A DNA stretch of 64,000 nt, from the IMG/VR virus record IMGVR_UViG_3300007072_000340, positions 30,216 through 94,215 of that record. One strand, 5' to 3'. The stretch is from a virus. Taxonomy: Duplodnaviria > Heunggongvirae > Uroviricota > Caudoviricetes. Shown here piece after piece: positions 1,625-55,806 of this stretch (the first letter of the stretch is position 1; each line of letters starts with the position of its first letter). The notes under the pieces were generated by a model, which saw nothing but the letters and a program-made list of their open reading frames with translations, was not told the origin of the DNA and ran no database searches. Made by a program: the position numbers and the translations under genes.

Positions 1625-1990
1625 TCAATGCCGGACTTGGGCGGATTCGCTTTCGCATTCGTCCTCGTCCCGATCGACCGATTCGTCCGGCCCATTGGCA
1701 ATCTCTACTTCCACTTGGCTCTCGTATTCAGGCTGCAACCGGTTCACGAGGGCCGTGGCGATCCTGTCACGAATAGCCTCGTCGTGCCCCCAACGCCGGA
1801 GGCGCGAATTCAGCCGCACTACGACCTCGCCTTCCACGGCCACGTCGTCCCCATCTGAGGCATGGGACTCCCATTCGCACGGCGAATGCGAGAAAAGCCG
1901 TTGCAGCACATCGAGGACGCTAGCCTCCGTTCCAGCGCGACCGTTGTACTTGCCTTTGGCGATGGTGATGTGGCAGCGAACATAGTTCAC
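1625..1990 (-). CDS. Small acidic hypothetical protein (GTG start overlapping helicase stop)
   Basis: GTGA start/stop overlap with upstream helicase; about 120 aa, acidic C-terminus (DESVDRDEDECESE). Rest of the 1625..2716 ORF lies inside the helicase and is not coding. Confidence 0.35.
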   Translation of the reverse strand: MNYVRCHITIAKGKYNGRAGTEASVLDVLQRLFSHSPCEWESHASDGDDVAVEGEVVVRLNSRLRRWGHDEAIRDRIATALVNRLQPEYESQVEVEIANGPDESVDRDEDECESESAQVRH

Positions 1991-4023
1991 GATGCGACCT
2001 CCTCCACCGACATCTCGCCCTCCTCGCCGGCATCCTTCCAATCGACGCCTTGGAGGATTTCGCCCATTGTCATTAGCTCCAGCTTTCGGTTGGCGCGAAT
2101 CACGTCCAACACACGGTCGTCGCTGGGCAGATGGATCAGGTCCACGATGGTACAGCCCAGGTTCTCGTCCATGCCTTTGCGGTGGATGCGATCCTCGCTC
2201 TGGACGCGGTACTCCGGCTTCCACGAATTGGACCAATAGACCGCCATGCGGGCCTCCACCAGCGTCAGGCTCATGCCGCCCGACTCCGGGTTGGCGACAA
2301 AGACGACCTTGCCGTGGTCTTCCAGGTTGCCCCAGTAGTCCAGCGGCTCTTCGCCGGTTACAGGGACGCCCTCCGGGCTGTCGCTCTTGGACGCGAGAAC
2401 CTGAAAGCTGCCCTGATCGCAGCGCACCACGTCCCACTTTTCCTTCAGACACAGCTTGACGATGCGATCCACGGAGCCGGTGAAGCCGGCGAAGACCACC
2501 AGCCGCCCGACTTCCTCGTTTTCGTCCAGCAACATCTTCAAGGCGGCGTCCTTCGGGCAGGGCACTTCCCGAGTGACGCGCACCATCCTGGGGACTTCCC
2601 GCTTGCCATTGCACAGCGGGCAGGGGACGGTCTGTTTGACGAGGCGGGCCAGCAGGTCCGGGTCCAGCATGTCGATGGCCTGATAGCGGGCCTCGGGAGC
2701 TTCCGGGTCCAACCACTGGGCAACGGTGCCGTCCGTGCAGTGCGTACAGGGCGTCATGCCGTCCTGAACTTCGCGGTATTGGAATCCGTCGCTCAGTTCC
2801 CGCAGCAACGTCATGCCGGTCACGGCGTTCGGGGCGGCACGGACGATGGATTCCGCCACGCGCAGGATGCTGGCCGTAGGCTTGCAGACGACCTTGCGGT
2901 ATCGTTTCTCGGGCAGGTGCAGGCAGTCCTTCTTGTGCTTGACGACCACCAGCCCCTTGAGCCGTTCGTAGAGGTAGGCGACCTCGTTCTTGCTGGCCTC
3001 AAACGGGTGGTAGTCTTCCGGGTCCGTCGCGCCGTCCAACTCGTGCGGCCCTTCCTCGAACGTGTCGCCGCACTTGGCGCACTTGCGTTCGTCGTCCTTC
3101 CAGCCGATGCGCTTCTTGAACTTGCCGGCATCGAATTGCTGCTCGACCATGAAGGCCAGCCGTTCCTCCATCGCCCGGCGGCTGCCCTCTTTCAGGAAGC
3201 CCGGCCAAGTGATCTCGCACTGACTCCACCAGTCGCACGGCGTCTTCGGCGACGGCGTGCCGGACATGAGGATCACGTAGCCGTCGTAGCCGTGTTTCTC
3301 GCGGATCAGGTCGGCGAGTTTCTGGCAGGCTTTCGAGCGTTGCGACGTGTCGTTCTTGCATCGGCTCGATTCGTCCGCCACGAAGAATCGCGGTGGCGGC
3401 TGGGTGCCGTCCCATTCATCCATCACCCGGACCAGCCCTTCGTAGGTGAAGAACTCGACCTGGATGCGATCGAAGGGAAAGCCCCAGAGCTTGAACTCGC
3501 GTTTGATGTTCGGGATGCTGGTCTTCGGTCCCGCCCACCACACCAGATCGACGCCCGACTTCTCAATCACCATCTGGGCGGCCAAGGTCTTGCCAACACC
3601 CATTTCCGCGCCGAATATCTGGTAGTGGTATGTCAGGCCGGTATCGGCCATGTCCGCTTGGTGCGGCATCAATGTCTGCGGTACGCCGCCGCGCATTAAC
3701 GGACGATACTCGTGCCGCACAACCGGCCGATCGAACCAGGCGTAAACGTCCTCGCCGCAGAGGTAGCCGATCTGGAACCGATTGCGATGGCAGTCGTCCA
3801 CCGACCAGACCATCTTCTTGGCGTACTCGCCCTCGTGGTCGTAGCCGTGGAAGTGTGCGCCGCGCATGGCCCGGACTTCCGCCGAAAGGCCGTAGCGGGT
3901 CTTCGTGCCCACCTTGCCGTCCCAGAAGTAGATGCGGCCGTCCTTCCGCTCCAACAGCACCGGCACGCGGATGCGCGTACCGCTGGAGGTGGTGGCTTCA
4001 ACCTTGACTGCCTCAACCGACAT
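1987..4023 (-). CDS. SNF2-family (SF2) helicase
   Basis: Walker A-like GAEMGVGKT, DEAH-like DESSRC, motif VI QSEDRIHRKG; C-terminal helicase domain; Zn-ribbon-like CxxC pairs in the insertion. Confidence 0.8.
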   Translation of the reverse strand: MSVEAVKVEATTSSGTRIRVPVLLERKDGRIYFWDGKVGTKTRYGLSAEVRAMRGAHFHGYDHEGEYAKKMVWSVDDCHRNRFQIGYLCGEDVYAWFDRPVVRHEYRPLMRGGVPQTLMPHQADMADTGLTYHYQIFGAEMGVGKTLAAQMVIEKSGVDLVWWAGPKTSIPNIKREFKLWGFPFDRIQVEFFTYEGLVRVMDEWDGTQPPPRFFVADESSRCKNDTSQRSKACQKLADLIREKHGYDGYVILMSGTPSPKTPCDWWSQCEITWPGFLKEGSRRAMEERLAFMVEQQFDAGKFKKRIGWKDDERKCAKCGDTFEEGPHELDGATDPEDYHPFEASKNEVAYLYERLKGLVVVKHKKDCLHLPEKRYRKVVCKPTASILRVAESIVRAAPNAVTGMTLLRELSDGFQYREVQDGMTPCTHCTDGTVAQWLDPEAPEARYQAIDMLDPDLLARLVKQTVPCPLCNGKREVPRMVRVTREVPCPKDAALKMLLDENEEVGRLVVFAGFTGSVDRIVKLCLKEKWDVVRCDQGSFQVLASKSDSPEGVPVTGEEPLDYWGNLEDHGKVVFVANPESGGMSLTLVEARMAVYWSNSWKPEYRVQSEDRIHRKGMDENLGCTIVDLIHLPSDDRVLDVIRANRKLELMTMGEILQGVDWKDAGEEGEMSVEEVAS

Positions 4024-5635
4024 TCAATCTCCCTCGTGCGATCTCGCAGTTGTGTTCGGTCAACTCGACACCAATGCAACGGCGGCCAAGGCGCTTGGCT
4101 GCCAGTAGCGTCGAACCGCTACCGGCAAAGGGATCGAGAATCACACCGCCATCCGGGGTCGAGAGCAGCGTCAGCAGGTACTCCATAAGAGCAACTGGTT
4201 TAACGCACGGATGCAGATTGCCTCGCCTTCCTCTTGCGCTTATCTGCGATAGCACTCGCAATACAGCACTGACGGCACCAAGGAGAGATGCAAGTTCGTC
4301 GCCTGTAGAAGTCCGCAATCGGTCGATGTTGTCCGCAACGTCGGCAGGGTTTAATCCAGCCGCCAGCAGCGTCTTGATAGCACCCAGAATGGATGCGCTT
4401 GTGTTCGAGGAAACTGAGAAGTTGCAGGTTCTCAATTCGGTTGTCAGTCTTGTCAAGGTTGACATGGTGAACGCAATGGCCGTCCGGGATTGGTCCGTAA
4501 TGCCGCTCCCAGACAACATCGTGTTCCATTCGGAGCCGCCCAGACGGTCCATGCCGATAGCGGATATAGCCCTTACGTGTCGGAGCGTATCGTCCATCTC
4601 TTGGCTTAGGTCCACGTCGTCCCATGTCACCACCTTGTCGCAACCTCTGTTTCGCTCTTTCGTGGTGGCCTTGGCCGTATAGAAAAACCGGCTCGCCCCG
4701 CCGGAGTCGCCGTAGGCCACCTGCGCATCGCCGGCCTTGCCCATGCCGCCGTGGTAGCCGTCGCCGGCCTTCGTTCGCACGACACCGGTGCCGCTCTTGA
4801 GCGTCCCGGTCTGAGCATCGAGAAGGCGGGCGGCCTCTTCATCCAGCAAGAGATTGGCCGGCCAGCGTCCTTTGGTGGACTCGATGAACTGGCTGCCCTT
4901 CTTCTCGGCCGATTGCTTGATCCGCTCGCCTTGCTTGCCGTGGAAGGTCGTGCCGTTGCGGTCGGCGTTGTACTTGTAGCCGGGGTTGTCGCCGATGCGG
5001 CAGGCGTCGATGTTCATCCCCGCCACGCCCCACGTCAGGGCATTGTGGGCGATGGTGCCATCCATCGGCTTCATCGCCAGGGTTATCGGTTCCCAGCAGG
5101 GTTTCAGGGCATTAGCCCAGCCCGTCCACTTGGCGGCCTCGGGGGTCGCCGGAGCGGTAATGGCGCACTCGGCTTCGGGGTTGTGCAGATCGCCGTAGAC
5201 CTCGTTCGTGCGGCCGTTGTCCGCCAGCGAGTAACCCGGCCGTCCGAGTTTCGTGCCGACGACTTCGCGCACCGCGCCCCTCGCTTTGTCGATCATCTTG
5301 CCGATGTCGGCCGCTTTAGGGAAACCTTGCCCGTAGAGCCACATGAGGCAGTCCCGAATCTCCCACCCGGCATCCTCGATGGCGCAGGCCAGCCGGTGAT
5401 AGGTTCGCGTGCCGCCAAAGGCCAGCATCAGCGCGCCAGGCTTACACACCCGACCGATGGCCCGCCAGAACTCGGGACCAGGAACCTCATGGTCCCAGTC
5501 CTTTTCCATGAATGAATACCCGTAGGGCGGGTCCGTCACCACGCAATCCACGCTGTTCTCCGGCAGCGTCGGCAGCACTTGCCGCAGATCGCCGCAGTAC
5601 AGAGTCAGCTTGTCTTGCTCGAAGCAGGGTTGCAT
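4013..5635 (-). CDS. DNA methyltransferase (beta-class N6-adenine/N4-cytosine, phage type), with a ~140-codon atypical insertion
   Basis: Motif IV DPPYGY near N-terminus, GASRFFYTAKATTKER block, C-terminal HPCVKP...VILDPFAGSGSTLLAA (motif I, FxGxG). Start taken at MQPCFEQDKL (ATG 5635). The reading frame passes through the HNH ORF region (4200-4643) in a different frame. Confidence 0.75.
   Translation of the reverse strand: MQPCFEQDKLTLYCGDLRQVLPTLPENSVDCVVTDPPYGYSFMEKDWDHEVPGPEFWRAIGRVCKPGALMLAFGGTRTYHRLACAIEDAGWEIRDCLMWLYGQGFPKAADIGKMIDKARGAVREVVGTKLGRPGYSLADNGRTNEVYGDLHNPEAECAITAPATPEAAKWTGWANALKPCWEPITLAMKPMDGTIAHNALTWGVAGMNIDACRIGDNPGYKYNADRNGTTFHGKQGERIKQSAEKKGSQFIESTKGRWPANLLLDEEAARLLDAQTGTLKSGTGVVRTKAGDGYHGGMGKAGDAQVAYGDSGGASRFFYTAKATTKERNRGCDKVVTWDDVDLSQEMDDTLRHVRAISAIGMDRLGGSEWNTMLSGSGITDQSRTAIAFTMSTLTRLTTELRTCNFSVSSNTSASILGAIKTLLAAGLNPADVADNIDRLRTSTGDELASLLGAVSAVLRVLSQISARGRRGNLHPCVKPVALMEYLLTLLSTPDGGVILDPFAGSGSTLLAAKRLGRRCIGVELTEHNCEIARGRLNVG
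4200..4643 (-). CDS. HNH endonuclease ORF embedded out-of-frame inside the methyltransferase gene
   Basis: Classic HNH core EHDVVWERHYGPIPDGHCVHHVNLDKTDNRIENLQLLSFLEHKRIH plus Cys-rich tail; frame offset -1 relative to the MTase; its TAA stop overlaps the V-K codons just before MTase HPCVKP. Confidence 0.6.
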   Translation of the reverse strand: MRQGGDMGRRGPKPRDGRYAPTRKGYIRYRHGPSGRLRMEHDVVWERHYGPIPDGHCVHHVNLDKTDNRIENLQLLSFLEHKRIHSGCYQDAAGGWIKPCRRCGQHRPIADFYRRRTCISPWCRQCCIASAIADKRKRKARQSASVR

Positions 5636-5709
5636 GGCAACGACGATTAGGATGAAAGACGCGCTGGTCGCTACAAGGGACAACGCAGGACGCCGGCAAA
5701 TCCCGAGTG

Positions 5710-6237
5710 CTACCGGCCCCTTTTGTCTTCCAGCAGCAGGTAGGTCTGGTCCGGGCTGCTGCGGGTCGTGCAATCCGGCCAGACATTCAGGCCGGCGGCC
5801 GTGAACAAGCCGTGCAGCTTGTTGAAGCAGTGGCGCACCGTAGTCGGCACGCCCTTGGCACAGCCGGAAAGGACGGCATCCCGCCATTGGGCAAGGGTGC
5901 CGGTGACGACTGCCGCCTGTACGCCCCGCACGATGGTTTCCACCGCTACAAACGGAAGGCCCGCGCAAAGCTGAAGTATGTCGAGCATGTCTCGCTCGTC
6001 GGCAGCGATAAACGCGCTGAACGAAACGTGCTGCAATAGGTGGGGTGACAGCCCCACCGGTGCCCGCACGTCCCGAAGTGCTGCCAAGCAGCTCAGGAAC
6101 CGCTCGGCGTCCGATAGCTCCCGCCGGCAGGCGTCCGTAGATGCAGCGGGCGAGCGGCCCAACACCTTATGGCTGAGGCCAATGAAGGTGCGGAAGTCGA
6201 TGGATGGAACCTGGATTAGGACTGCATCAGGCATCAT
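5710..6237 (-). CDS. Hypothetical protein
   Basis: 175-aa ORF directly upstream of the MTase on the same strand; no recognisable motifs. Confidence 0.4.
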   Translation of the reverse strand: MMPDAVLIQVPSIDFRTFIGLSHKVLGRSPAASTDACRRELSDAERFLSCLAALRDVRAPVGLSPHLLQHVSFSAFIAADERDMLDILQLCAGLPFVAVETIVRGVQAAVVTGTLAQWRDAVLSGCAKGVPTTVRHCFNKLHGLFTAAGLNVWPDCTTRSSPDQTYLLLEDKRGR

Positions 6238-6394
6238 GGTTTAGTGGACGCCGCTTGCTGGAATCCCATTCACTGACGATCCGGTAGAGGCCGTGGCACG
6301 CCCGGTCCAGGTTCCCGCGGTCCGGCCGCGGCCAAGCGAAAGAGAGCAAGAAGCCGAGGGCGGTCGCCGTCGCCACCCTCGGCCGAAGAGGGGA

Positions 6395-7132
6395 CTACCG
6401 GGCGCGGGCCGGCTTGCTGTCCTGGACCTTCTCGACGCCGTTGTCCTTGATCGTGAGGAACTTGGTGATTTCCCGCACGATTACCTCCTGCGGAGGCAGC
6501 TTCGTGAACGGCGCGGAGCACATCACCACGACCGGGACATGCCACGTCCCCTTGCGGTTCTCGGCCACCTTCGTCTTCAGCGTGACCGGGATCGGGCCGT
6601 GCGGCTTGAGATCGCCCACGTCGTTGCCGGCCGCCGCCTTGGCGTCGATGTCGGCCTGGGTGAGCGGCAGGAACGGAAAGATTTTCTTCGCCTCGATGCG
6701 GCTCGACTTGTTGCCGCAGAAGAACTCCAGGAAGCGGCCGGTCGAGCGCTCGTAGACGAGGAACGACGGGCCGTACTGGCAGTGGGAATCGGCCTCGGCG
6801 GACTTCGTGGCGATCCGGTTGAACTCCTCCGATTCCATATCGTAGGAAATCACCAGCGCCTCCATGTCGGTCATGTCGATGGCCTTCGGCCGGCGGGCCA
6901 GCGGGAGCAGGTCCACGGACGGCCCCAGGTCGATGATCTCTTCATCGGACTCCGGGATGCCGTAGTGGCCCGAGGGGATCAGGCCCTTCATGTTGGCCTT
7001 GCTCTTGGTGTACAGTTGCATCCGGCCGATGTAGTCGCCTCCCTTCGCCAGTTCGGCGAACTGGTCGTCGGTGCCGAGTTGGGTGCTGGGAAGCTGGCCG
7101 AGATTGACGGGGACCATTGCGGTGTTGGACAT
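6395..7132 (-). CDS. Hypothetical phage protein
   Basis: 245-aa ORF with ordinary amino-acid composition (MSNTAMVPVNLGQL...), unlike the overlapping GC-rich + strand ORF 6293..7363 (R/G/A-rich, judged noise); function not recognised. Confidence 0.55.
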   Translation of the reverse strand: MSNTAMVPVNLGQLPSTQLGTDDQFAELAKGGDYIGRMQLYTKSKANMKGLIPSGHYGIPESDEEIIDLGPSVDLLPLARRPKAIDMTDMEALVISYDMESEEFNRIATKSAEADSHCQYGPSFLVYERSTGRFLEFFCGNKSSRIEAKKIFPFLPLTQADIDAKAAAGNDVGDLKPHGPIPVTLKTKVAENRKGTWHVPVVVMCSAPFTKLPPQEVIVREITKFLTIKDNGVEKVQDSKPARAR

Positions 7133-46432: not shown

Positions 46433-47005
46433 CTATAGTGGAAGCGGAGCCGCCGGAGTGTATAGCGGCGTCACCGCCCATCCGTAGCTCGCCTTCCACT
46501 CAGCGATCAGCGTCTCTCGCGGGACCCAGATAAACTTCTCGACGTTGTTGTTGTCGAGGAGGGCAGCCCACCTGTCGTCGAGATGCACAAGTGCGACCAT
46601 GTGCGCCCCACCCATGACCGTGATACCGCAGCCGCGCCGCGTGCGACAACTCCACTCAAGGAAGCGAACGTCCCCGTTGGTCACGTAGGCGTAACGGATG
46701 CCCTCTTTGTCGAACTTCGCGGCCAAGTCGTCCGGCCACTCTCCATTGGCGTACCTCCAACGCCAGTAGTTGGCTGTCGCCAGGCGGCCTTGCCAGCGGA
46801 GCAGGCTAATCATCGTGGCGTGGACGCACGACCCCTCACGGCGGTTGCCTAGCCAGTTGCTCTGCCGCAACGCCAGCGGGATATTGACCACCGGACGCTC
46901 CTTCTTGACCACGCGGCTTCTGGTGTTCTCGGTGGCTTCGCAGCCCACGACCACGACCAGCAAGACCAGCGCAAAGAAGACTCGTGTCAGACGGGGTTGA
47001 GACAT
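46433..47005 (-). CDS. Lipoprotein, possible C39-like papain-fold peptidase
   Basis: Lipobox LLVVVVGC; Cys...His arrangement GSCVHATMISLL...GGAHMVALVHL. Confidence 0.4.
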   Translation of the reverse strand: MSQPRLTRVFFALVLLVVVVGCEATENTRSRVVKKERPVVNIPLALRQSNWLGNRREGSCVHATMISLLRWQGRLATANYWRWRYANGEWPDDLAAKFDKEGIRYAYVTNGDVRFLEWSCRTRRGCGITVMGGAHMVALVHLDDRWAALLDNNNVEKFIWVPRETLIAEWKASYGWAVTPLYTPAAPLPL

Positions 47006-47475
47006 GCGAACTCTCCGAAGTGTTTGAGCACGGCCTCGTTATAGGCCCGTGCGGCATCCCGCGGATCATCGAAAGTGCCGAGATATACACGGCGGCCGTC
47101 CACACCGATTTGGGCGACTGGCTTTCCGTCCCAGGATCGCGGGTAAACGCCTTTGAAGCCGGAGGTATTGTTCTTCGGACGCTTCGAGTTCACGTTATTC
47201 TGGGACCGCGATGCTATCCGCAGATTGCCACGCTGATTGTTCAAGCCGTTGCCGTCAACGTGGTCAACATCGCCCGCTTCGATGTCCAATCCGCATCTGT
47301 CCGCGATAAGGCGGTGCATGAAGACGTATTGGCGGCCGTTCTCGGTGTAGTTGATGCGTTTCGCATAACCCGTTTGGCCGCGACGGTGAAACTGCCACTT
47401 CCACCGCATCAGGTCCTCGTAATCGCAATCGTCTACCAACACCTCCTTGCCCCCAGCCAACGGAATCGTCCTCAC
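46987..47475 (-). CDS. HNH homing endonuclease with AP2 DNA-binding domain
   Basis: HNH_3 core MHRLIADRCGLDIEAGDVDHVDGNGLNNQRGNLRIASRSQN; AP2 domain SGFKGVYPRSWDGKPVAQIGVDGRRVYLGTFDDPRDAARAYNEAVLKHFGEFA. Confidence 0.75.
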   Translation of the reverse strand: MRTIPLAGGKEVLVDDCDYEDLMRWKWQFHRRGQTGYAKRINYTENGRQYVFMHRLIADRCGLDIEAGDVDHVDGNGLNNQRGNLRIASRSQNNVNSKRPKNNTSGFKGVYPRSWDGKPVAQIGVDGRRVYLGTFDDPRDAARAYNEAVLKHFGEFACLNPV

Positions 47476-48086
47476 TACTTCAGTCTCCGAGGTTTCAGCA
47501 GAATCTCAGCCCGACGAAGACGACGTACAAGCATATTGGGCGACCAGCGACTCACGTTATCCGTCGCAAGCAATCCCACCGTCGCATACGCGGCTGCCAC
47601 CATTTCCGAGCAGAAGATCGAGGTTAGGTCCTGCTCACGAAACAGGGATTCGACCCACGACAGCCCCACGCCGGCCGACCGGAACGCCCCCATTGCGTCG
47701 TAGGGCGTCCCAATGGTTTCCATCAGAAACTCGGTCAACCGCTCGTCCTCCTGTGGATACAGCGGCCGATATAGTGGGTAGTGGTACGCCTTGCCCGAAT
47801 AGTGTCGCAGGATGAAGTCGAGTCCGTGGGCCTGCGTGCCGCAGATCGCCTTGCCCGTGATTTCGCACGGGATGTCGCCGTCCAGGGACGTGCTCTCGAA
47901 GATCAGCAGGCGGCCGTCCGGGGCGTTCCCCATGATCCCCACATGACTGATTCCCCATAGCGGAATCCCGTAGGTGGCGATGTTGACGGCCGCGCTGATC
48001 CAACTCCGCCCGCTGAAGCCGATGATGTCACCGGGCTTGATTCCGGCCTCGCCGGGCAGTACGAGTCTCCGCGTGAATGGGAACAT
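47475..48086 (-). CDS. Permuted papain-fold (YiiX/NlpC-P60-like) cysteine peptidase; endolysin candidate
   Basis: GIKPGDIIGFSGRSWISAAVNIATYG...SHVGIM (His) precedes FCSEMVAAAYA (Cys): permuted order. Confidence 0.45.
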   Translation of the reverse strand: MFPFTRRLVLPGEAGIKPGDIIGFSGRSWISAAVNIATYGIPLWGISHVGIMGNAPDGRLLIFESTSLDGDIPCEITGKAICGTQAHGLDFILRHYSGKAYHYPLYRPLYPQEDERLTEFLMETIGTPYDAMGAFRSAGVGLSWVESLFREQDLTSIFCSEMVAAAYATVGLLATDNVSRWSPNMLVRRLRRAEILLKPRRLK

Positions 48087-50722: not shown

Positions 50723-51157
50723 CCTTCACCTTCCTTCCTACCGCTTGTTGCGGCAGTCTCCGTCTCATTTCCGGTCATGTCAGGCAAAGCCGTTGGGCGG
50801 CGGAACCAGTGGCGATCACACGGAGGAATGCGGAATGTCGCTTGAGCATCGACGTAGCCTTGGGCGGCACGGCAGCTTCCATCGGGCTAGTCGTCGCCGG
50901 GGGCAAGCCCCGGCGGAAGTCACCCGACATCCGCTGCCACTTGCCGAAGGTCCGACGAAGCGGTATCCACGCACTGCATGGCACTCGGCCGTGCTGCCAC
51001 CCGCGATGGCGTGCCGAGCTTGCGCCGATTCCTCCGGGAGTCGCCCGATGGGCGGACTGCCCGGATTCCTCAACGCCGCCGGTCGTTCATTCGCCGGTGG
51101 CCGATCACACATTGGCCCGCCTCCCTCGGGCCGCTTGGAGCAGGGTTTCAGCCTGCG

Positions 51158-51230
51158 GTCTTGGTACGGGAGTCGAACCCGCGACAGCCAGATTCACGGT
51201 CTGGTGCTCTATCCGCTGAGCTAACCTGGT
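51158..51230 (-). tRNA. tRNA-like (anticodon GUG, His-like), probable pseudogene
   Basis: T-arm GCGGG/TTCGACT/CCCGT and D-arm present, anticodon loop CCGTGAA (C33); acceptor stem pairs poorly. Confidence 0.3.
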
Positions 51231-51339
51231 TGACACGACCTTCGGTCAGAACCCATTGACGGAACAAACGCCGCCAACCGCCTCATGTGAGGACGGGGCA
51301 ACGTGCGCCGTTGGCCTGGCCGTATCATTGCTTATGAAG

Positions 51340-51410
51340 AGACGCCGGTGGGAATCGAACCCACTTGAACCGGGTTGCGGCCGGTCGCCTTGCCATCTGG
51401 CTCCAGCGTC
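51340..51410 (-). tRNA. tRNA-Cys(GCA)
   Basis: Acceptor GACGCUG/CGGCGUC, T-loop TTCGATT, anticodon loop CCGCAAC (C33). Confidence 0.65.
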
Positions 51411-51413
51411 AAG

Positions 51414-51486
51414 CGTCCTCGCCAGGAGTCGAGCCTGGTCTTCGACCTTCGCAAGGTCGCGTGCGAATCCCCCACACTCCGAGGAC
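51414..51486 (-). tRNA. tRNA-Arg(GCG)
   Basis: Perfect 7-bp acceptor GTCCTCG/CGAGGAC; anticodon loop TTGCGAA; T-loop CTCGACT (C54). Confidence 0.55.
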
Positions 51487-51499
51487 CTTCGTTACTCAG

Positions 51500-51571
51500 C
51501 GCCCCGCCGAGGAATTGAACCCCGTCTTGCAGTTCCGAAGACTGCCGTGCTGTCCGGCACACTCGCAGGGC
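51500..51571 (-). tRNA. tRNA-Arg(UCG)
   Basis: Anticodon arm ACTGC/TTCGGAA/GCAGT... read as codon CGA on + strand; T-loop TTCAATT; acceptor with one G-U. Confidence 0.55.
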
Positions 51572-51583
51572 TTTTGCGTCGAG

Positions 51584-51676
51584 TATCCCGACCAGGAATC
51601 GAACCCGGGCACCGCCGCGCAGCGGTGGTCGCTGGAGCTTCGGAGGCTCCGATGCGATCCGCTACACCATCGGGAC
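51584..51676 (-). tRNA. tRNA-Arg(CCG)-like with 18-nt palindromic hairpin (caccgc cgcgca gcggtg) in the variable region
   Basis: T-arm CCGGG/TTCGATT/CCTGG, anticodon arm GGAGC-TTCGGAG-GCTCC on + strand (codon CGG); 93 nt total. Confidence 0.4.
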
Positions 51677-51762
51677 ATGAACCAAGGAGCCGACGACTGG
51701 ACTTGCACCAGCATCAAGCGGTTTACAGGACCGCTGCCTTTCTGTTCGGCCATGTCGGCAAG

Positions 51763-51832
51763 CACGAGCGCGAGGAGTCGAACCCCGTGCGGCAGGGTTG
51801 GAGTCTGCCTGCTCTCCCAAGAGCACGCTCGT
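51763..51832 (-). tRNA. tRNA-Trp(CCA)
   Basis: + strand anticodon loop gttggag (codon TGG, U33); acceptor ACGAGCG/CGCTCGT; T-arm CGGGG/TTCGACT/CCTCG. Confidence 0.5.
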
Positions 51833-51876
51833 GTATTGCCCCCGGCCACGAGGACCGGGGGCTTCTGGCGTAACGA

Positions 51877-52473
51877 CTACTTCTGCAACTCCACGTTCCA
51901 GTAGGCTTCGCTGATGAACTTGGACCAGCTTGCGATCCGCATGGTGTGGTCCGCGTACAGCGGCTTCCACGTGGGCCGGACGGGCTGCTTGCGCACGCGC
52001 ATCCGGGCCTGCTCCGGCGTCCGGTCAGCCTTCCGCTTGTTGCAGGCCATGCAAGCCAGCACGCAGTTTTCCCAACACGACACGCCACCTTGTGACCGCG
52101 GCAGCACGTGGTCGATCGTCAACTCCTCACTGCCCGGCTGCGCGCCGCAGTATTGGCAGGTGTAATGGTCCCGCTTGAACACGTTGCGACGGCTGAAGGT
52201 CACCGCGCCCAGCGGAAGCCGATCGTAGCCGGTCAATGCCACGACCTCCGGCACCCGCAGCCGGAACCGAACTGCCTGGACGAACGCCTCGCCATCCTTC
52301 GGCTTCAGCTTCGACCAGTCCGCCCAGGTGTAAAGCTGGAAGTCTTCGGGGTCCACCACGCGGGCCGACTCGTTCCAGAGCAGCACCAACGCACGCTCCA
52401 CGGTCGCTACGTGGACCGGCTGCCAGTTGCGGTTCAGGACCAGCGTCGGTTGCTCAAGGACCTTGGTGACCAT
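51877..52473 (-). CDS. HNH endonuclease embedded in the tRNA array
   Basis: HNH core CQYCGAQPGSEELTIDHVLPRSQGGVSCWENCVLACMACNKRKADR; flanked by tRNA-Trp (downstream) and tRNA-His (upstream). Confidence 0.8.
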   Translation of the reverse strand: MVTKVLEQPTLVLNRNWQPVHVATVERALVLLWNESARVVDPEDFQLYTWADWSKLKPKDGEAFVQAVRFRLRVPEVVALTGYDRLPLGAVTFSRRNVFKRDHYTCQYCGAQPGSEELTIDHVLPRSQGGVSCWENCVLACMACNKRKADRTPEQARMRVRKQPVRPTWKPLYADHTMRIASWSKFISEAYWNVELQK

Positions 52474-52492
52474 TGTGATCTCCGTCAGTAAG

Positions 52493-52567
52493 GGTGTCCG
52501 GGGAGAGTCGAACTCCCACCCTCTGGTTCACAGCCAGCCGTGCAGTGACCGCTACACCACGGACACC
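52493..52567 (-). tRNA. tRNA-His(GUG)
   Basis: Anticodon loop CTGTGAA, extra 5' G(-1) opposite C73 (His hallmark), acceptor GTGTCCG/CGGACAC. Confidence 0.7.
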
Positions 52568-52585
52568 ATGCGATTGTTGTCAGCA

Positions 52586-52655
52586 CCCCGACCGGGACTC
52601 GAAGTGCGGAACACCTCGGTAGAAACGAGGCATGATGTCCATTTCACCATCGGGG
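52586..52655 (-). tRNA. tRNA-Arg(UCU)-like, irregular T-arm
   Basis: Clean anticodon arm cctcg-gtagaaa-cgagg (codon AGA) and acceptor ccccgac/atcgggg, but T-stem does not pair. Confidence 0.35.
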
Positions 52656-52659
52656 CAAG

Positions 52660-52749
52660 CGGAAGGCATGGGATTTGAACCCACATGACACCTTTCGGCG
52701 TCGCACGGTTTAGCAAACCGGCCCGGCCAACCGTATCCGGCTACCTTCC
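52660..52749 (-). tRNA. tRNA-Ser(GCU)
   Basis: Type II, 90 nt; anticodon loop ttagcaa on + strand (codon AGC); long variable hairpin gacacc-tttc-ggcgtc; G73. Confidence 0.65.
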
Positions 52750-52764
52750 GTAATCACGCATCAG

Positions 52765-52835
52765 TGGACCGACCGGGAATTGAACCCGGATCTCCAGAAT
52801 GCCGTTCTGGTGTCTTCCCCTTGGACCATGAGCCC
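52765..52835 (-). tRNA. tRNA-Ala(GGC)
   Basis: G3:U70 pair present, A73; anticodon loop ACGGCAT (C33); T-arm CCGGG/TTCAATT/CCCGG. Confidence 0.7.
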
Positions 52836-52864
52836 GTTGTCGTTGTAGTGGACCCGACCACCGC

Positions 52865-52940
52865 TTCGCGGCGGTGCCCGGAGTCGAACCCATCGCACCG
52901 ATCTTGCACCCGATCAGTCGCCTCCACGGAACATGCCAGC
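52865..52940 (-). tRNA. tRNA-like element, unresolved (degenerate T-arm)
   Basis: gagtcgaaccc T-loop signature at 52882 but no consistent cloverleaf found by hand. Confidence 0.2.
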
Positions 52941-52951
52941 CCACGAATCGA

Positions 52952-53042
52952 AAGGTCTGTCCGGGAATTGAACCGGGCACCATGCGCAGCATGGTCCTTC
53001 CGCCTTACCGAGGAGGTGTGCTACCGAAACACCTACAGACCC
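52952..53042 (-). tRNA. tRNA-like element with palindromic insertion accatgc-gca-gcatggt, unresolved identity
   Basis: aattgaa T-loop signature, D-arm gtg-tgctaccgaaa-cac, acceptor aggtctg/cagaccc; anticodon not assignable. Confidence 0.25.
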
Positions 53043-53047
53043 TCAAG

Positions 53048-53120
53048 TGATCCCCGCTGGCATCGAACCAGCACTTTCCTGGTTGTCACCCAGGCGTCTT
53101 TGCCATTGGACCAGGGGATC
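53048..53120 (-). tRNA. tRNA-Val(GAC)
   Basis: Acceptor GATCCCC/GGGGATC perfect; anticodon loop ttgtcac on + strand (codon GTC); A73. Confidence 0.7.
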
Positions 53121-53127
53121 ATTCCAG

Positions 53128-53201
53128 TGACCGGAGTGGGAGTCGAACCCACAGGCACGAGGCTCTCGACCTCGCCGCTATGCCAGTTTGCGTACCCGGT
53201 C
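53128..53201 (-). tRNA. tRNA with Leu anticodon GAG but short (5-nt) variable loop
   Basis: Anticodon arm cgagg-ctctcga-cctcg (codon CTC, C33), D-arm cgc-tatgccagttt-gcg, A73; 74 nt. Confidence 0.5.
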
Positions 53202-53285
53202 GTGGCGGGTCCGGGGGTCGCACCCGGCGTTCCCGGCTTATGAGGCCGGGCTGAGCACTGGCCCACCCGCAGCATGTTTCCGAGT

Positions 53286-53372
53286 TGCAGGCCCCGGTAT
53301 CGAACCGGGCGCACCGGCCCGACCAACCTTCGGTCGGTGCCCGGAGCCAGTTGGGCACCTGCCGCGCCTGCA
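53286..53372 (-). tRNA. tRNA-like element, unresolved (about 85 nt)
   Basis: Perfect T-arm cccgg-tatcgaa-ccggg and acceptor tgcaggc/gcctgca; internal arms not resolved. Confidence 0.25.
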
Positions 53373-53408
53373 ATTCCTCAATGACCACCCGCGCCTGCAA
53401 TTCCTCAA

Positions 53409-53492
53409 TGACCACGGGGAGAGTCGAACTCCCAATGCCGCAAGGGCACGACGTTCTGACCGTCGCGTGTCTGCCAATTCCACCACATGGTC
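53409..53492 (-). tRNA. tRNA-Leu(CAG)
   Basis: Type II with 15-nt variable arm; anticodon loop ttctgac on + strand (codon CTG); D-arm gtg-tctgccaattc-cac; A73. Confidence 0.7.
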
Positions 53493-53501
53493 ATGCTGCC
53501 T

Positions 53502-53594
53502 GAGTGGCCCGTGCGGGAGTTGAACCCGCCTTTCCGGCTGACCATGCTGCGCATGGTGCCCGGGCCGGCGTCCTGTACCGATAGACGAACGAGC
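53502..53594 (-). tRNA. tRNA-like paralogue of tRNA-Glu(55603) carrying an 18-nt palindromic insertion in the anticodon loop
   Basis: Shares acceptor, T-arm, D-arm (gtc-ctgtaccgata-gac ga acgagcc) with 55603..55675; anticodon stem ccggc/gccgg encloses 25 nt including ccatgc-tgc-gcatgg. Confidence 0.35.
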
Positions 53595-53602
53595 CAGTTG
53601 AG

Positions 53603-53686
53603 TGCGCCGGGCAGGAGTTGAACCTGCATAGCCTTTCGGGCTGGCTGCTTTACAGGCAGTTGGGCACGCCGATGCCCAGCCGACGC
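53603..53686 (-). tRNA. tRNA-Tyr(GUA)
   Basis: Type II; variable hairpin agcc-tttcg-ggct; anticodon loop tttacag (codon TAC); A73. Confidence 0.7.
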
Positions 53687-53700
53687 ATGTTGTTCGTGAG

Positions 53701-53774
53701 TGGCGCAGGTGGGACTCGAACCCGCAATCACCAAGGTTTGAGCTTGGCCGCTTTGCCGATTTGCGTACCGCGCC
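53701..53774 (-). tRNA. tRNA with Leu anticodon CAA but short variable loop
   Basis: Anticodon arm ccaag-gtttgag-cttgg (codon TTG, U33); D-arm cgc-tttgccgattt-gcg; A73; 74 nt. Confidence 0.5.
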
Positions 53775-53788
53775 GCCACTGGTCGAAA

Positions 53789-53864
53789 GCGCCCTCGACG
53801 GGATTTGAACCCGCGATCTCCTGCGTGACAGGCAGGCGAGCACTCCAGGCTGCTCCACGAGGAC
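53789..53864 (-). tRNA. tRNA-Asp(GUC)
   Basis: Anticodon arm cctgc-gtgacag-gcagg (codon GAC); T-loop TTCAAAT; G73. Confidence 0.7.
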
Positions 53865-53876
53865 AAACATTTCCAG

Positions 53877-53951
53877 TGGCCCAGGCGGGACTCGAACCCA
53901 CAGCATCCCTGGTTCTAAGCCAAGGTGGTCTGCCAGATTGCCTACGGGGCC
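53877..53951 (-). tRNA. tRNA with Leu anticodon UAG but short variable loop
   Basis: Anticodon arm cctgg-ttctaag-ccaag (codon CTA); D-loop tctgccagatt like 53128 and 53701; A73. Confidence 0.45.
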
Positions 53952-53952
53952 G

Positions 53953-54046
53953 TGCCCAGGGCCGGAGTCGAACCCGAAACCGCCTGCCACCACCGCTACG
54001 CGGCGGTGCCCGAGCCAAGCCGCTCTGCCAATTGGCGTACCTGGGC
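53953..54046 (-). tRNA. tRNA-like element with hairpin caccgc-tacgcg-gcggtg, unresolved
   Basis: D-arm cgc-tctgccaattg-gcg and acceptor gcccagg/cctgggc match the 53128/53701/53877 family; T-stem and anticodon arm irregular. Confidence 0.25.
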
Positions 54047-54053
54047 GATCAAG

Positions 54054-54125
54054 TAGCCCCGGATGGAGTCGAACCATCGTTTCCTGGGTGTGGACCAAGC
54101 GTCGTTGCCGTTGGACCACGGGGCT
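54054..54125 (-). tRNA. tRNA-Val(CAC)
   Basis: Anticodon arm cctgg-gtgtgga-ccaag (codon GTG, C33); D-arm gtc-gttgccgttg-gac as in Val(GAC); A73. Confidence 0.65.
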
Positions 54126-54137
54126 GAGTCGCCAAAG

Positions 54138-54208
54138 TGGAGTCACCGAGAGTCGCACTCGGATTTCCATCTTGCGGAGGTGGCGTCGTCCTGTTGGACC
54201 ATGACCCC
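54138..54208 (-). tRNA. tRNA-Ala(CGC)
   Basis: G3:U70, A73; anticodon loop ttgcgga (codon GCG, C33); T-loop TGCGACT non-canonical. Confidence 0.55.
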
Positions 54209-54214
54209 AAAAGG

Positions 54215-54300
54215 CGGAAGCCGTGGGACTCGAACCCACAAGCGGCTGCTGGCCGCCACCTGTTTTCAAGACAGGCCCCTCATCCGGCCGGATGACTTCC
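54215..54300 (-). tRNA. tRNA-Ser(UGA)
   Basis: Type II; variable hairpin gcggc-tgctg-gccgc; anticodon arm cctgt-tttcaag-acagg (codon TCA); G73. Confidence 0.7.
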
Positions 54301-54309
54301 GTATTGAAG

Positions 54310-54380
54310 CTGCGGAGGCTGGAATCGAACCAACATGAAGACGTTCAGAGCGTCTCATCCTACCGTTAGATGACTCCGCA
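54310..54380 (-). tRNA. tRNA-Gln(CUG)
   Basis: Anticodon arm agacg-ttcagag-cgtct (codon CAG); perfect acceptor tgcggag/ctccgca; G73. Confidence 0.7.
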
Positions 54381-54418
54381 TTGCGTTGCTCATCGAGACA
54401 CCGCCATGTCGTCGCAAG

Positions 54419-54489
54419 TTCGGGGAGGAGGGGTCAAACCTCCGTCTCCTGGTTCAAAGCCAGACGGCCTACCACTAGCCGATCCCCGA
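54419..54489 (-). tRNA. tRNA-Gln(UUG)
   Basis: Anticodon arm cctgg-ttcaaag-ccaga (codon CAA); T-loop TTTGACC atypical. Confidence 0.55.
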
Positions 54490-54490
54490 G

Positions 54491-54562
54491 AGTGCCCTGC
54501 GGGAATCGAACCCGCCTAGCCAGCTTGGAAGGCTGGAGCCTTTGCCGATCGGCCAAGGGCAC
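54491..54562 (-). tRNA. tRNA-Gly(UCC)
   Basis: Fully canonical cloverleaf checked base by base; anticodon loop CTTCCAA; U73. Confidence 0.8.
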
Positions 54563-54567
54563 GAAGG

Positions 54568-54651
54568 CGGAAGGTGAGGGAGTCGAACCCCCAAGGCTCG
54601 TCGCTCGGCCGCTTTCGGGGTGGCTGCCATCGCCAGTTGGCTTGACCTTCC
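54568..54651 (-). tRNA. tRNA-Ser(CGA)
   Basis: Type II; anticodon arm gccgc-tttcggg-gtggc (codon TCG, C33); G73; perfect acceptor ggaaggt/accttcc. Confidence 0.55.
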
Positions 54652-54666
54652 GTTCTCTCCAAAAGG

Positions 54667-54754
54667 CTCCGGCGGCTGGACTCGAACCAGCGGTGGGGCA
54701 AACGCCACGTCGCCTTAACAGGCCGATCCCTGCTACCAACTCGGGTACACCGGA
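54667..54754 (-). tRNA. tRNA with Asn anticodon GUU carrying a 16-nt hairpin in the variable region
   Basis: Anticodon arm tcgcc-ttaacag-gccga (codon AAC); D-arm ccc-tgctaccaactc-ggg; 88 nt. Confidence 0.4.
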
Positions 54755-54762
54755 TCACAAAG

Positions 54763-54836
54763 TCAGGACGGCGGGATTTGAACCCGCGCTCTCGTGCTCC
54801 CGAAGCACGCGGAATACCGGGCTTTCCTACGTCCTG
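54763..54836 (-). tRNA. tRNA-Pro(CGG)
   Basis: Anticodon arm cgtgc-tcccgaa-gcacg (codon CCG); D-arm ggaa-taccgggct-ttcc; A73. Confidence 0.7.
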
Positions 54837-54846
54837 TTAATCAAGA

Positions 54847-54916
54847 GCGCCCAGCGGGAGTTGAACCCGCGCTTCCGCCTCGGCAAGGCGGCAGGCTGCC
54901 GCTACATCATGGGCGC
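54847..54916 (-). tRNA. tRNA-Gly(GCC)
   Basis: Anticodon arm ccgcc-tcggcaa-ggcgg (codon GGC); perfect acceptor; U73. Confidence 0.7.
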
Positions 54917-54949
54917 GATCTCATGTGGGCCGGATTGTCAAAGATCAAG

Positions 54950-55021
54950 AGCACCGGGCGGGACTCGAACCCGCGTCGCCGCATTACGGGTGCGGTGTCC
55001 TTGCCGCTGGACGACCAGTGC
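54950..55021 (-). tRNA. tRNA-Thr(CGU)
   Basis: Anticodon arm ccgca-ttacggg-tgcgg (codon ACG, C33). Confidence 0.6.
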
Positions 55022-55032
55022 GTTTCTCGCAG

Positions 55033-55105
55033 TGGGACCAGAGGAACTTGAACCCTCACCTGGCGGATTAAGAGTCCGCTGTGCTGCCGCTAGCACCTTG
55101 ATCCC
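55033..55105 (-). tRNA. tRNA-Lys(CUU)
   Basis: Anticodon arm gcgga-ttaagag-tccgc (codon AAG); T-loop TTCAAGT; A73. Confidence 0.7.
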
Positions 55106-55121
55106 GTCTTTTGTCCACCAG

Positions 55122-55194
55122 TCGGCGCGGAGGGAGTCGAACCCTCGACCTGACCCTTATAAGAGGTCTGCTCTCACCGCTGAGCTACACGCCA
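55122..55194 (-). tRNA. tRNA-Ile(UAU)
   Basis: Anticodon loop CTTATAA (codon ATA on + strand); D-arm gctc-tcaccgct-gagc; A73. Confidence 0.6.
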
Positions 55195-55199
55195 GCGAG

Positions 55200-55271
55200 T
55201 AGGGCCGGAGGGGATCGAACCCACATCTGCCGGATTAAAAGTCCGGTGTGCTGCCATTACACCACGACCCT
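55200..55271 (-). tRNA. tRNA-Lys(UUU)
   Basis: Anticodon arm ccgga-ttaaaag-tccgg (codon AAA); A73. Confidence 0.7.
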
Positions 55272-55341
55272 GTACTTGGTCGGGCGTATGCGTTTCAACC
55301 GGGTCAACATCGTTTCACTCCTCGTGTTTGTTCGCGCCAAG

Positions 55342-55413
55342 TGGTAGTCCTGAGAATCGAACTCAGCGCCGCGCGGTTATCAGCCGCGTTCGGGCAACCA
55401 GCCCTCGACTACC
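55342..55413 (-). tRNA. tRNA-Ile(GAU)
   Basis: Anticodon arm cgcgg-ttatcag-ccgcg (codon ATC); perfect T-arm ctgag-aatcgaa-ctcag; A73. Confidence 0.65.
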
Positions 55414-55439
55414 TCGTGCCAACGTCGTTGTCGATCCAG

Positions 55440-55512
55440 TCGGGATGGCAGGACTCGAACCTGCGTCTCCGTGCTCCCAAAGCACGTGGGCTCGCCGCTA
55501 CCCTACATCCCG
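55440..55512 (-). tRNA. tRNA-Pro(UGG)
   Basis: Anticodon arm cgtgc-tcccaaa-gcacg (codon CCA); same anticodon stem as Pro(CGG); A73. Confidence 0.7.
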
Positions 55513-55520
55513 CACCTCAG

Positions 55521-55595
55521 TCAGAACGGCCGGATTTGAACCGGCGATCTCCTGCACCCCGAGCAGGCGCGATACCCAGGCTTCGCTACGTTCTG
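55521..55595 (-). tRNA. tRNA-Pro(GGG)
   Basis: Anticodon arm cctgc-accccga-gcagg (codon CCC, C33); perfect acceptor cagaacg/cgttctg; A73. Confidence 0.6.
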
Positions 55596-55602
55596 ATCGC
55601 AG

Positions 55603-55675
55603 TAGCCCGTGCGGGAGTCGAACCCGCCTTTTCGGCTTGAAGGGCCGATGTCCTCAACCGATAGACGAACGAGCC
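55603..55675 (-). tRNA. tRNA-Glu(UUC)
   Basis: Anticodon arm tcggc-ttgaagg-gccga (codon GAA, C33); D-arm gtc-ctcaaccgata-gac. Confidence 0.6.
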
Positions 55676-55734
55676 GCGTCGGCGCGCACCTTCCACGCAG
55701 CCGGAACCCAGGTTGGCGCGCACGCTCAGCGTAG

Positions 55735-55806
55735 TGGGCCGGGAGGTGCTCGAACCCTCGTCTGCTGCTTTTCAGGCCGCCGCTACACCATCTCAGCTAC
55801 CAGCCC
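55735..55806 (-). tRNA. tRNA-Phe(GAA)
   Basis: Anticodon arm gctgc-ttttcag-gccgc (codon TTC); D-arm gct-acaccatctc-agc; first tRNA of the array in transcription order. Confidence 0.55.

Follow-up and report, generated by a model that had tools for sequence, protein, structure and literature searches.

The DNA analysed here, called the window throughout, is a 64,000-nucleotide (nt) stretch from a virus of the class Caudoviricetes (IMG/VR record IMGVR_UViG_3300007072_000340, positions 30,216 to 94,215 of that record; positions below count from the first letter of the window). On its minus strand lies a gene for a predicted DNA methyltransferase (methylase), which contains an insert relative to its homologues; nested in that insert, out of frame, is an open reading frame (ORF) for a putative HNH endonuclease. 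The methylase ORF runs from an ATG at 5635 to a stop at 4013 (the longest listed version starts farther upstream, at TTG 5968) and was matched by PF01555 (N6_N4_Mtase) in two separated stretches (97.4 bits; cutoff 26.7) and by the phrog_67 DNA methyltransferase family (E = 2e-61). Its motifs follow one another in the order of beta-class methylases, namely IV (DPPY), target-recognition region, X and I (FxGxG), and Foldseek searches with the core of the methylase model returned beta-class enzymes (CcrM, 6PBD; M.BceJIV; M1.HpyAVI; RsrI; PvuII). An earlier reading of the same DNA, made from its letters alone and referred to here as the original prediction, had recognized a phage-type methylase by its DPPY, FFY, HPCVKP and DPFAGSGST blocks, all of which are present. 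S315, R316 and F317 of the SRFFY block were invariant in homologue alignment A1, and H475, K479 and P480 of motif X were invariant across the aligned methylases.

A DNA alignment (A2) of the window and three insert-bearing viral contigs (L001–L003) with four insert-free relatives (L007, L008, L013 and L017) contained a single gap, whose length of exactly 423 nt is divisible by three, between the GAGC(G) of K-E-R and G-x-G-N. The insert thus lies between the FFY..KER block and motif X, that is, in the linker after the target-recognition region. This linker is variable in the family, and the L020 methylase has a natural 47-residue linker at the window’s insertion position. Insert-free homologues read ...FFYxGKATxKERGPGNDHPTVKP, with 14 residues from FFY to HPTVKP, and the insert-free allele type (L008 or P0005) contains AAGGAGCGGGGACCGGGCAACGACCATCCCACCGTTAAGCC. 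The original prediction had put this spacing within about 10 residues in related enzymes and the extra sequence at about 140 codons; for the latter, alignment with insert-free homologues, the check that it had proposed, gave 141. The GC content of the insert was 0.548, compared with 0.633 for the remainder of the methylase gene and 0.628 for the window. Relatives came from protein-level searches, which returned many insert-free methylases of about 398–400 amino acids (aa), 86–92% identical, and a minority of 525–560 aa with the extra segment; megablast of window positions 3500–6500 against cultured phages gave no match.

The nested ORF, taken at 4200–4643, matched PF13392 (HNH_3; E = 2.6e-16, 59.4 bits, cutoff 24.8) and 13 PHROG HNH families, and the columns of its presumed catalytic His and Asn residues and zinc-binding Cys pairs (H35, H53, H54, N62, N66, H75, C94, C97, C117 and C120) were invariant in an alignment (A4) of 35 homologues, identifying it as a putative HNH_3, or His-Me finger, endonuclease. 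The predicted −1 frame was borne out (host codon position 1 falls on HNH codon position 2), but the start is probably the ATG at 4625 rather than the TTG at 4643. Likewise, the HNH stop does overlap methylase codons, not just before HPCVKP, as had been read, but inside that motif. The ATG lies 28 nt inside the 5′ junction of the insert. The HNH ORF occupies 399 of the 423 inserted nucleotides (~94%), so that the insert is essentially a nuclease gene and nothing else.

The sequence upstream of the ATG at 4625 is AAGGTGGTGAC (also given as GACAAGGTGGTGAC) and includes a Shine–Dalgarno-like (SD-like) site with an anti-SD duplex energy of −7.6 kcal/mol. Its G-rich motif, (A/C)AGGTGGTGAC, was kept in L001–L003, which with the window and L139 make up the five insert copies that we call type A, and was weakened to AAGTTGGTGAC in L139 (AAGTTGG). 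An SD-like site preceded the ATG in ~19 of 32 nested homologues. A scan for sigma-70 promoters found no internal promoter, and a terminator-like hairpin at 4688–4704 was at chance level, the sequence merely encoding GGASRFFY. There was no other strong copy of this HNH family in the window. Positions 46990–47505 on the minus strand gave a weak match (E = 0.005) to an HNH profile built from A4 and may be a second, distant HNH-like ORF.

Table 1 Features of the methylase locus, in window positions
Feature	Position	Strand	Description
Insertion element, 423 nt / 141 codons	4231..4653	−	Gap relative to insert-free L007, L008, L013 and L017 (DNA alignment A2); edges ± ~3 nt
Putative HNH_3 endonuclease ORF, 141 aa	4200..4625	−	−1 (+2) frame relative to methylase; PF13392, phrog_99 HNH endonuclease
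HNH stop TAA	4200–4202	−	T of Val478 (GTT) and AA of Lys479 (AAA), inside motif X; ~28 nt past the 3′ junction, in host sequence
SD-like AAGGTGG	4630..4636	−	4 nt upstream of HNH ATG, within methylase codons; candidate, from sequence
Beta-class N6/N4 DNA methyltransferase ORF, 540 aa	4013..5635	−	Open through insert; PF01555, phrog_67, Foldseek
Motif IV DPPY, catalytic	5522–5533	−	Residues 35–38; nearly invariant in homologue alignments A1 and A5
SRFFY	4679–4693	−	Residues 315–319; last conserved block 5′ of insert
TKER	4652–4663	−	Residues 325–328
Motif X HPCVKP	4196–4213	−	Residues 475–480; directly 3′ of insert
Motif I DPFAGSGST, S-adenosylmethionine (SAM) binding	4109–4135	−	Residues 501–509; downstream of insert, in frame
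SNF2-type DNA helicase gene	1987..4023	−	Downstream; phrog_62 DNA helicase, E = 4e-55

The original prediction had also noted that the methylase frame stays open across the insert. In the window, there were no host-frame stops across the HNH ORF and seven stops in the third same-strand frame. HNH homologues were drawn from viral contigs, from one genome per species and from contigs encoding them, and stops were counted in both other same-strand frames of each near-full-length copy. Copies were called nested if the methylase C-terminal block (GNxHPTxKP...DPFxGSG) began at the HNH stop in the +1 frame, and 33 nested and 39 non-nested copies were left after duplicates had been removed. The host frame was free of stops in 32 of the 33 nested copies and held a single stop in the other, whereas every non-nested copy had 2–13 stops in that frame (stop-free, 0/39; Fisher p = 1e-19). 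Stops in the third frame numbered 4–25 in nested and 1–22 in non-nested copies, and GC content ranged from 0.35 to 0.63 and from 0.33 to 0.66, respectively. Nested copies were found on contigs assigned to Planctomycetaceae, Actinomycetota, Oceanobacillus sojae, Rhodobacteraceae, Cloacimonadota, Deltaproteobacteria, Propionivibrio, Rhodoferax and Clostridia. The host ORFs spanning them were mostly 500–930 aa long, the majority retaining motifs IV and I.

The same contrast was seen at the level of codons. A host-frame stop needs an HNH codon of the form NT(A/G) followed by a codon starting with A, or NTA followed by a codon starting with G. NTR codons preceded an A-starting codon in 1/237 cases in nested copies, compared with 134/318 in non-nested copies (p = 6e-38); before C- or T-starting codons, the corresponding counts were 102/313 and 150/424, and within nested copies the difference between the two contexts (before A versus before C or T) gave p = 1e-27. 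NTA before a G-starting codon occurred 23 times in non-nested copies and never in nested ones, and methionine followed by an A-starting codon was likewise absent from nested copies (0/67, against 43/128 in non-nested copies; p = 8e-10). These counts indicate that both the synonymous codon choice and the amino-acid sequence of the nested nucleases are shaped to keep the host frame open.

Substitution patterns point to which of the overlapping frames is constrained as protein. Among the five type A copies, substitutions in the insert fell at HNH codon positions 1, 2 and 3 in the numbers 181, 129 and 295, indicating that the HNH protein is under purifying selection. Position 2 of the host frame is therefore the most variable there, with no constraint on the host peptide beyond the absence of stops. 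The pattern switched directly after the HNH stop: in the next 58 methylase codons of invaded alleles, host positions 1, 2 and 3 had 121, 68 and 284 substitutions, as expected if invaded methylases are still selected as proteins beyond the insert. Translation would therefore have to continue through the insert, which we consider the only sensible reading of selection acting on codons downstream of it.

The peptide encoded by the host frame was lower in arginine in nested than in non-nested copies (0.043 versus 0.109) and lower in tryptophan (0.016 versus 0.031), a difference that held at GC contents of at least 0.5; proline was depleted only in the all-copy comparison. The arginine and tryptophan depletion is suggestive either of selection on the read-through peptide or of relatedness among the samples, being confounded by kinship of the non-nested copies. 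An AlphaFold model made with a 58-sequence alignment placed residues ~330–470 in a helical bundle with a predicted local distance difference test (pLDDT) score of 68–94, and modelled the target-recognition region (130–315) poorly. On this model, it is plausible that the inserted peptide folds.

Judged by these searches, the insert appears to be neither a group I or II intron nor an intein, in agreement with the original prediction. Rfam, searched over the insert region at E ≤ 1, returned only a chance HLE hit and no intron, and a 491-nt insert RNA folded no better than shuffled sequence (minimum free energy z = −0.59). A spliced RNA would gain nothing from stop avoidance, which further disfavours an intron. 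The host-frame insert peptide had no Pfam or Hint match and was predicted to form six helices, not the beta-rich Hint fold. The junctions read KER↓NRGC...ARGRR↓GN (arrows mark the edges of the insert), lacking the intein junction residues C/S/T...(H)N↓C/S/T. The methylase is a single continuous 540-aa ORF, and is not split in the manner of mobE (discussed later).

Carriage of the insert is patchy. Insert-free methylases up to 92% identical had no HNH gene within 4 kb, and every type A carrier was at least as similar to an insert-free methylase as to another carrier: P0026 was 0.94 identical to the insert-free P0087 and 0.67 to its nearest carrier, P0003 was 0.84 identical to an insert-free methylase and 0.75 to a carrier, and the window was 0.92 identical to both. 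On the methylase tree, carriage is therefore polyphyletic. Divergence of the nuclease was out of step with that of its host, the window and L003 being 77% identical in HNH and 67% in the N-terminal part of the methylase, and the window and L001 80% identical in HNH and 93% in the methylase. A patchy pattern of this kind would be expected from homing or from repeated precise loss, and the foreign GC content of the insert agrees with it.

The explanation that we favour, with a probability of roughly three in four, is that the window carries a homing endonuclease element that has neither intron nor intein, sits in the methylase linker and is read through by its host. The original prediction had proposed a homing-type HNH gene lying in a methylase loop in another frame, and this is supported by the Pfam matches and by the insert-free homologues; homologues with a similar in-frame segment proved to carry the same HNH gene, and the −1 frame matched HNH families. 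A compact HNH_3 gene would have settled in the linker that joins the target-recognition region to motif X, and ribosomes would read the methylase frame straight through it, yielding a ~60-kDa enzyme with an extra 141-residue segment that is predicted to be all-helical and that would be tolerated at a naturally variable linker. The HNH protein would be made separately, most simply by ribosomes that initiate internally, at the ATG behind its own SD-like site. During mixed infection, it would cut or nick alleles without the insert close to their KER-GPGNDHPTVKP codons, and repair by recombination would then copy the element into them. We infer read-through tolerance, internal initiation and homing alike from comparisons of sequences.

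Several observations weigh against this explanation. For the window’s HNH gene taken by itself, shuffling of synonymous codons left the host frame open in 59–100% of trials, which is not significant; this null is uninformative because the codon usage of the gene already embodies stop avoidance, and the case for a selected open frame therefore rests on the comparison of nested with non-nested family members. Those two sets are phylogenetically non-independent, many non-nested copies coming from one Planctomycetota/Acidobacteriota prophage clade, although the effect is qualitative (all versus none) despite this. Two relatives have damaged methylases: L138 (Planctomycetaceae metagenome-assembled genome CAWBLA010000006) has one stop and a frame change, and the syntenic L049:1990-3612 (ERZ25039495 contig_12673) is broken by two compensating frameshifts; both may be either decaying copies or assembly errors. 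The spacing from SD-like site to ATG is only 4 nt, and ~40% of nested copies are without an obvious SD. A single-sequence AlphaFold model of the insert peptide gave the same helices at a pLDDT of 42, confidence being high only with the alignment. Finally, what is known of elements of this kind comes from computational work (PMC11855218).

L049 was also considered as a natural fusion of HNH to the methylase C-terminus (P0121). Given the two compensating frameshifts, and a contig name that suggests long-read assembly, it was not used as evidence.

It is doubtful, in our estimate, that the overlap goes beyond tolerance to genuine dual coding or a functional partnership. In one version of this idea, the host-frame peptide may be a selected, folded helical module of the methylase, for which the modelled helical bundle and the arginine and tryptophan depletion are the relevant observations. 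In the other, the methylase may shield phage DNA from the nested HNH, the two forming a minimal, self-contained restriction-modification or addiction module; the basis for this version is that most members of the HNH clade examined lie within or directly after a PF01555 methylase gene.

We regard it as unlikely that the open frame serves only to avoid polarity and to keep the coupling of the methylase to the downstream helicase gene, with the invaded methylase enzymatically dead. The helicase ATG and the methylase stop overlap by 11 nt (4013–4023), with GGGAGA upstream, and the two genes are probably translationally coupled; moreover, the methylase is dispensable in some related mycobacteriophages (PMC11855218). 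Nevertheless, substitutions among invaded alleles in the SAM-binding part after the insert are dominated by third positions, as described above, and most of the 33 nested hosts, which lie in unrelated genomic contexts, keep motifs IV and I.

Just as improbable, in our view, is that HNH and methylase are a functional pair instead of host and parasite, either as a restriction-modification or addiction module or with HNH serving DNA packaging, and that nesting ensures their co-inheritance. Such a pairing would accommodate the positions of the non-nested homologues (L051–L054, L143–L188), 33 of 39 of which lie on the same strand as a PF01555 methylase, often a ParB fusion, 40–120 nt downstream of its C-terminus. 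It would also accommodate the position of the L051 HNH gene, just upstream of terminase genes as well, and mycobacteriophage HNH genes that directly precede the homologous methylase gene. The adjacency fits a nuclease clade that targets methylase genes, since a homing enzyme with that target would give the same arrangement, and it is compatible with a functional partnership too. However, methylases up to 92% identical without a nearby HNH gene, the polyphyletic carriage and the foreign GC content of the insert all stand against such a pair.

It is very unlikely that an unrecognised ribozyme or protein-splicing activity removes the insert from the transcript or from the protein. An open host frame would be required for protein splicing as well, a cysteine is among the first residues of the insert (NRGC), and unorthodox phage introns are known (discussed in PMC11855218). 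Against this stand the Rfam result (nothing at E = 1 beyond the chance hit) and the unremarkable RNA fold, an HNH ORF that fills nearly all of the insert, stop avoidance that would be pointless for a spliced RNA, and a host-frame peptide that is all-helical by prediction, has no Pfam match and is most variable at its second codon position. Fusion of HNH to the methylase N-terminus by programmed −1 frameshifting is hardly credible: the window shares the −1 frame of its HNH with other published or observed cases, and 71 open codons precede the HNH ATG in that frame, but L001, L003 and L139 have a stop 4 codons before that ATG, no X_XXY_YYZ slippery site was seen by eye at the junction, and an SD-like motif with an ATG is present in all type A copies, if weaker in L139.

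Other inserts were found in this methylase family, and the host frame was open in every one examined. An unrelated insert follows ASRFF, ~10 codons upstream of the window’s site, in L006:2713-3198 (IMGVR_UViG_3300031862_000121) and also in P0010, P0098 and P0101; in L006 it holds a 161-aa +2-frame ORF with HNH-like motifs (CxxC...HHHDY...CxxCH) and weak, sub-cutoff Pfam hits, and ends with a duplicated RFKYxxKATKKERG. In L046:460-1062 (IMGVR_UViG_3300041955_000302), a ~230-codon insert after GRWPANVLLDE contains a +1-frame ORF with HNH_3 and NUMOD3. In L002:255-788 and L043:3000-3521, DWDKA near motif IV is followed by an in-frame LAGLIDADG_1 domain of ~175 aa (E = 2.6e-7), with no Hint, which resembles the ‘lone LAGLIDADG’ of mycobacteriophage methylases (PMC9957025); in L002 it occurs alongside the type A HNH.

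P0008 (589 aa) has a ~190-aa insert after ALKPA, whose peptide aligns, at the protein level only, with the ‘ShiLan domain’ of mycobacteriophage Starcevich (discussed below), including a duplicated (V/Y)EPVxVAxKP start; ShiLan-type elements would therefore also occur outside actinophages. Escherichia phage BUCT618 (OM735461; L057:589-2451) encodes a 620-aa protein annotated ‘site-specific DNA-methyltransferase’ with a frame-open insert at the position of the large insert, probably an intein, of mycobacteriophage homologues. It hides an unannotated 202-aa +2-frame ORF with HNH motifs (AHHVKP...CHQCH), as judged by eye. In the methylase of L048:3404-4837 (IMGVR_UViG_3300022663_000098), the target-recognition segment GRWPAN...GGASRFF is present twice in tandem, as two different sequence variants, which suggests within-gene recombination between alleles.

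Elsewhere in the window, positions 51157–55806 on the minus strand contain 36 tRNA genes covering nearly all amino acids, some of unusual length (tRNA-Arg(ccg), 94 nt; tRNA-Thr(ggt), 91 nt; tRNA-Asn, 90 nt). This array suggests that the window comes from a large phage genome.

The usual view is that a homing endonuclease gene can persist in an essential or useful gene only under cover of a self-splicing intron or an intein, or by splitting that gene. The window’s element would represent a third, barely documented route, in which the host ribosome reads through the parasite in another frame and the parasite’s codons are tuned against stops. At such a locus, a gene caller outputs the long methylase or the HNH but not the two together; nested nucleases would therefore be missed systematically, and methylase families would gain spurious ‘domains’. 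Given its small size, the system lends itself to direct experiments on whether read-through is tolerated, on internal initiation and on homing.

The original prediction had not recognized the arrangement, which is nevertheless already known from homologous methylases of mycobacteriophages, where its first description dates from 2025. Gosselin et al. (2023; PMC9957025) had found an intein, a lone in-frame LAGLIDADG and a 202-aa ‘ShiLan domain’, then left unexplained, in a mycobacteriophage methylase family. Arsenault, Gosselin and Gogarten (Genes 2025; PMC11855218) found that this domain hides a 195-aa HNH in the third frame, running from a GTG 18 nt into the insert to a TAA in its last 4 nt, with a stop-free host frame, no intron or intein signature, a disjunct distribution and no ribosome-binding site; they proposed leaderless initiation, reported no experiments and described a second hidden case, Pacc40 gp60. 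Beyond these two papers, both of them computational studies of mycobacteriophage methylases, our literature search found none on the arrangement, none citing the 2025 title and no experiment on the mechanism.

The window’s element is of the same kind as ShiLan but not the same element, its site being different and its HNH non-orthologous. Like the insertions in ShiLan gp65 and Starcevich gp66, from a family that includes StAnnes gp70, it lies in a PF01555 host (45–50% identical to the window methylase), leaves the host frame stop-free, and has an HNH that nearly fills the insert in the same third (+2) frame and stops at its 3′ edge. Both have a disjunct distribution and no intron or intein signature, and the HNH_3 cores of the window and Starcevich are 39% identical over 100 aa (E = 8e-11). 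In contrast, the ShiLan site follows ALKP(S/A), ~150 codons upstream of the window’s post-KER site in window numbering. In ShiLan, the insert measures 202 aa and its 195-aa HNH has zinc ribbons on either side, whereas the window’s insert and HNH are each 141 aa, with C-terminal CxxC pairs only. ShiLan starts with GTG and no detectable ribosome-binding site, whereas the window has an ATG with an SD-like site, and ShiLan hosts are Mycobacterium, whereas the window’s type occurs with Planctomycetaceae-like and many other phyla.

Pacc40 gp60 resembles the window in having an out-of-frame (+2), nuclease-like 159-aa ORF in a helicase–methylase fusion with an open host frame. That ORF lies in the helicase part, at residues ~255–413, is of a different HNH type (DRIDNDGNYEPGNCRW) and has no detected similarity to the window’s HNH; we therefore rejected it as a same-site precedent. 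In 2007, Gibb and Edgell, whose work bioRxiv 10.1101/2025.01.02.630785 cites, reportedly described mobE, a free-standing HNH homing endonuclease gene that splits nrdA of Aeromonas phage Aeh1. It is likewise an HNH homing gene in a conserved host gene, with its own translation signals and neither intron nor intein, but nrdA is cut into two ORFs whose products reassemble, whereas the window’s host ORF is continuous through the nuclease gene. Group I introns also encode HNH endonucleases, such as I-HmuI. They share the HNH family with the window’s element, and for both homing into conserved coding sequence is presumed; the window lacks a ribozyme core, and has a stop-free host frame that a spliced intron would not need. 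Inteins include actinophage examples with an out-of-frame or antisense endonuclease gene (bioRxiv 10.1101/2025.01.02.630785). They too are in-frame insertions at conserved sites of phage genes in which the nuclease may use another frame, but an intein contains a Hint splicing domain and is bordered by the junction residues C/S/T...HN↓C/S/T, and the window’s insert has neither.

Compared with these systems, what is new here is, first, codon-level evidence for a selected stop-free host frame, found in neither PMC9957025 nor PMC11855218; second, a third insertion site, with a smaller HNH and an SD-led start; and third, a wide host range that takes in Planctomycetaceae-like phages, Firmicutes, Proteobacteria, Actinomycetota and others.

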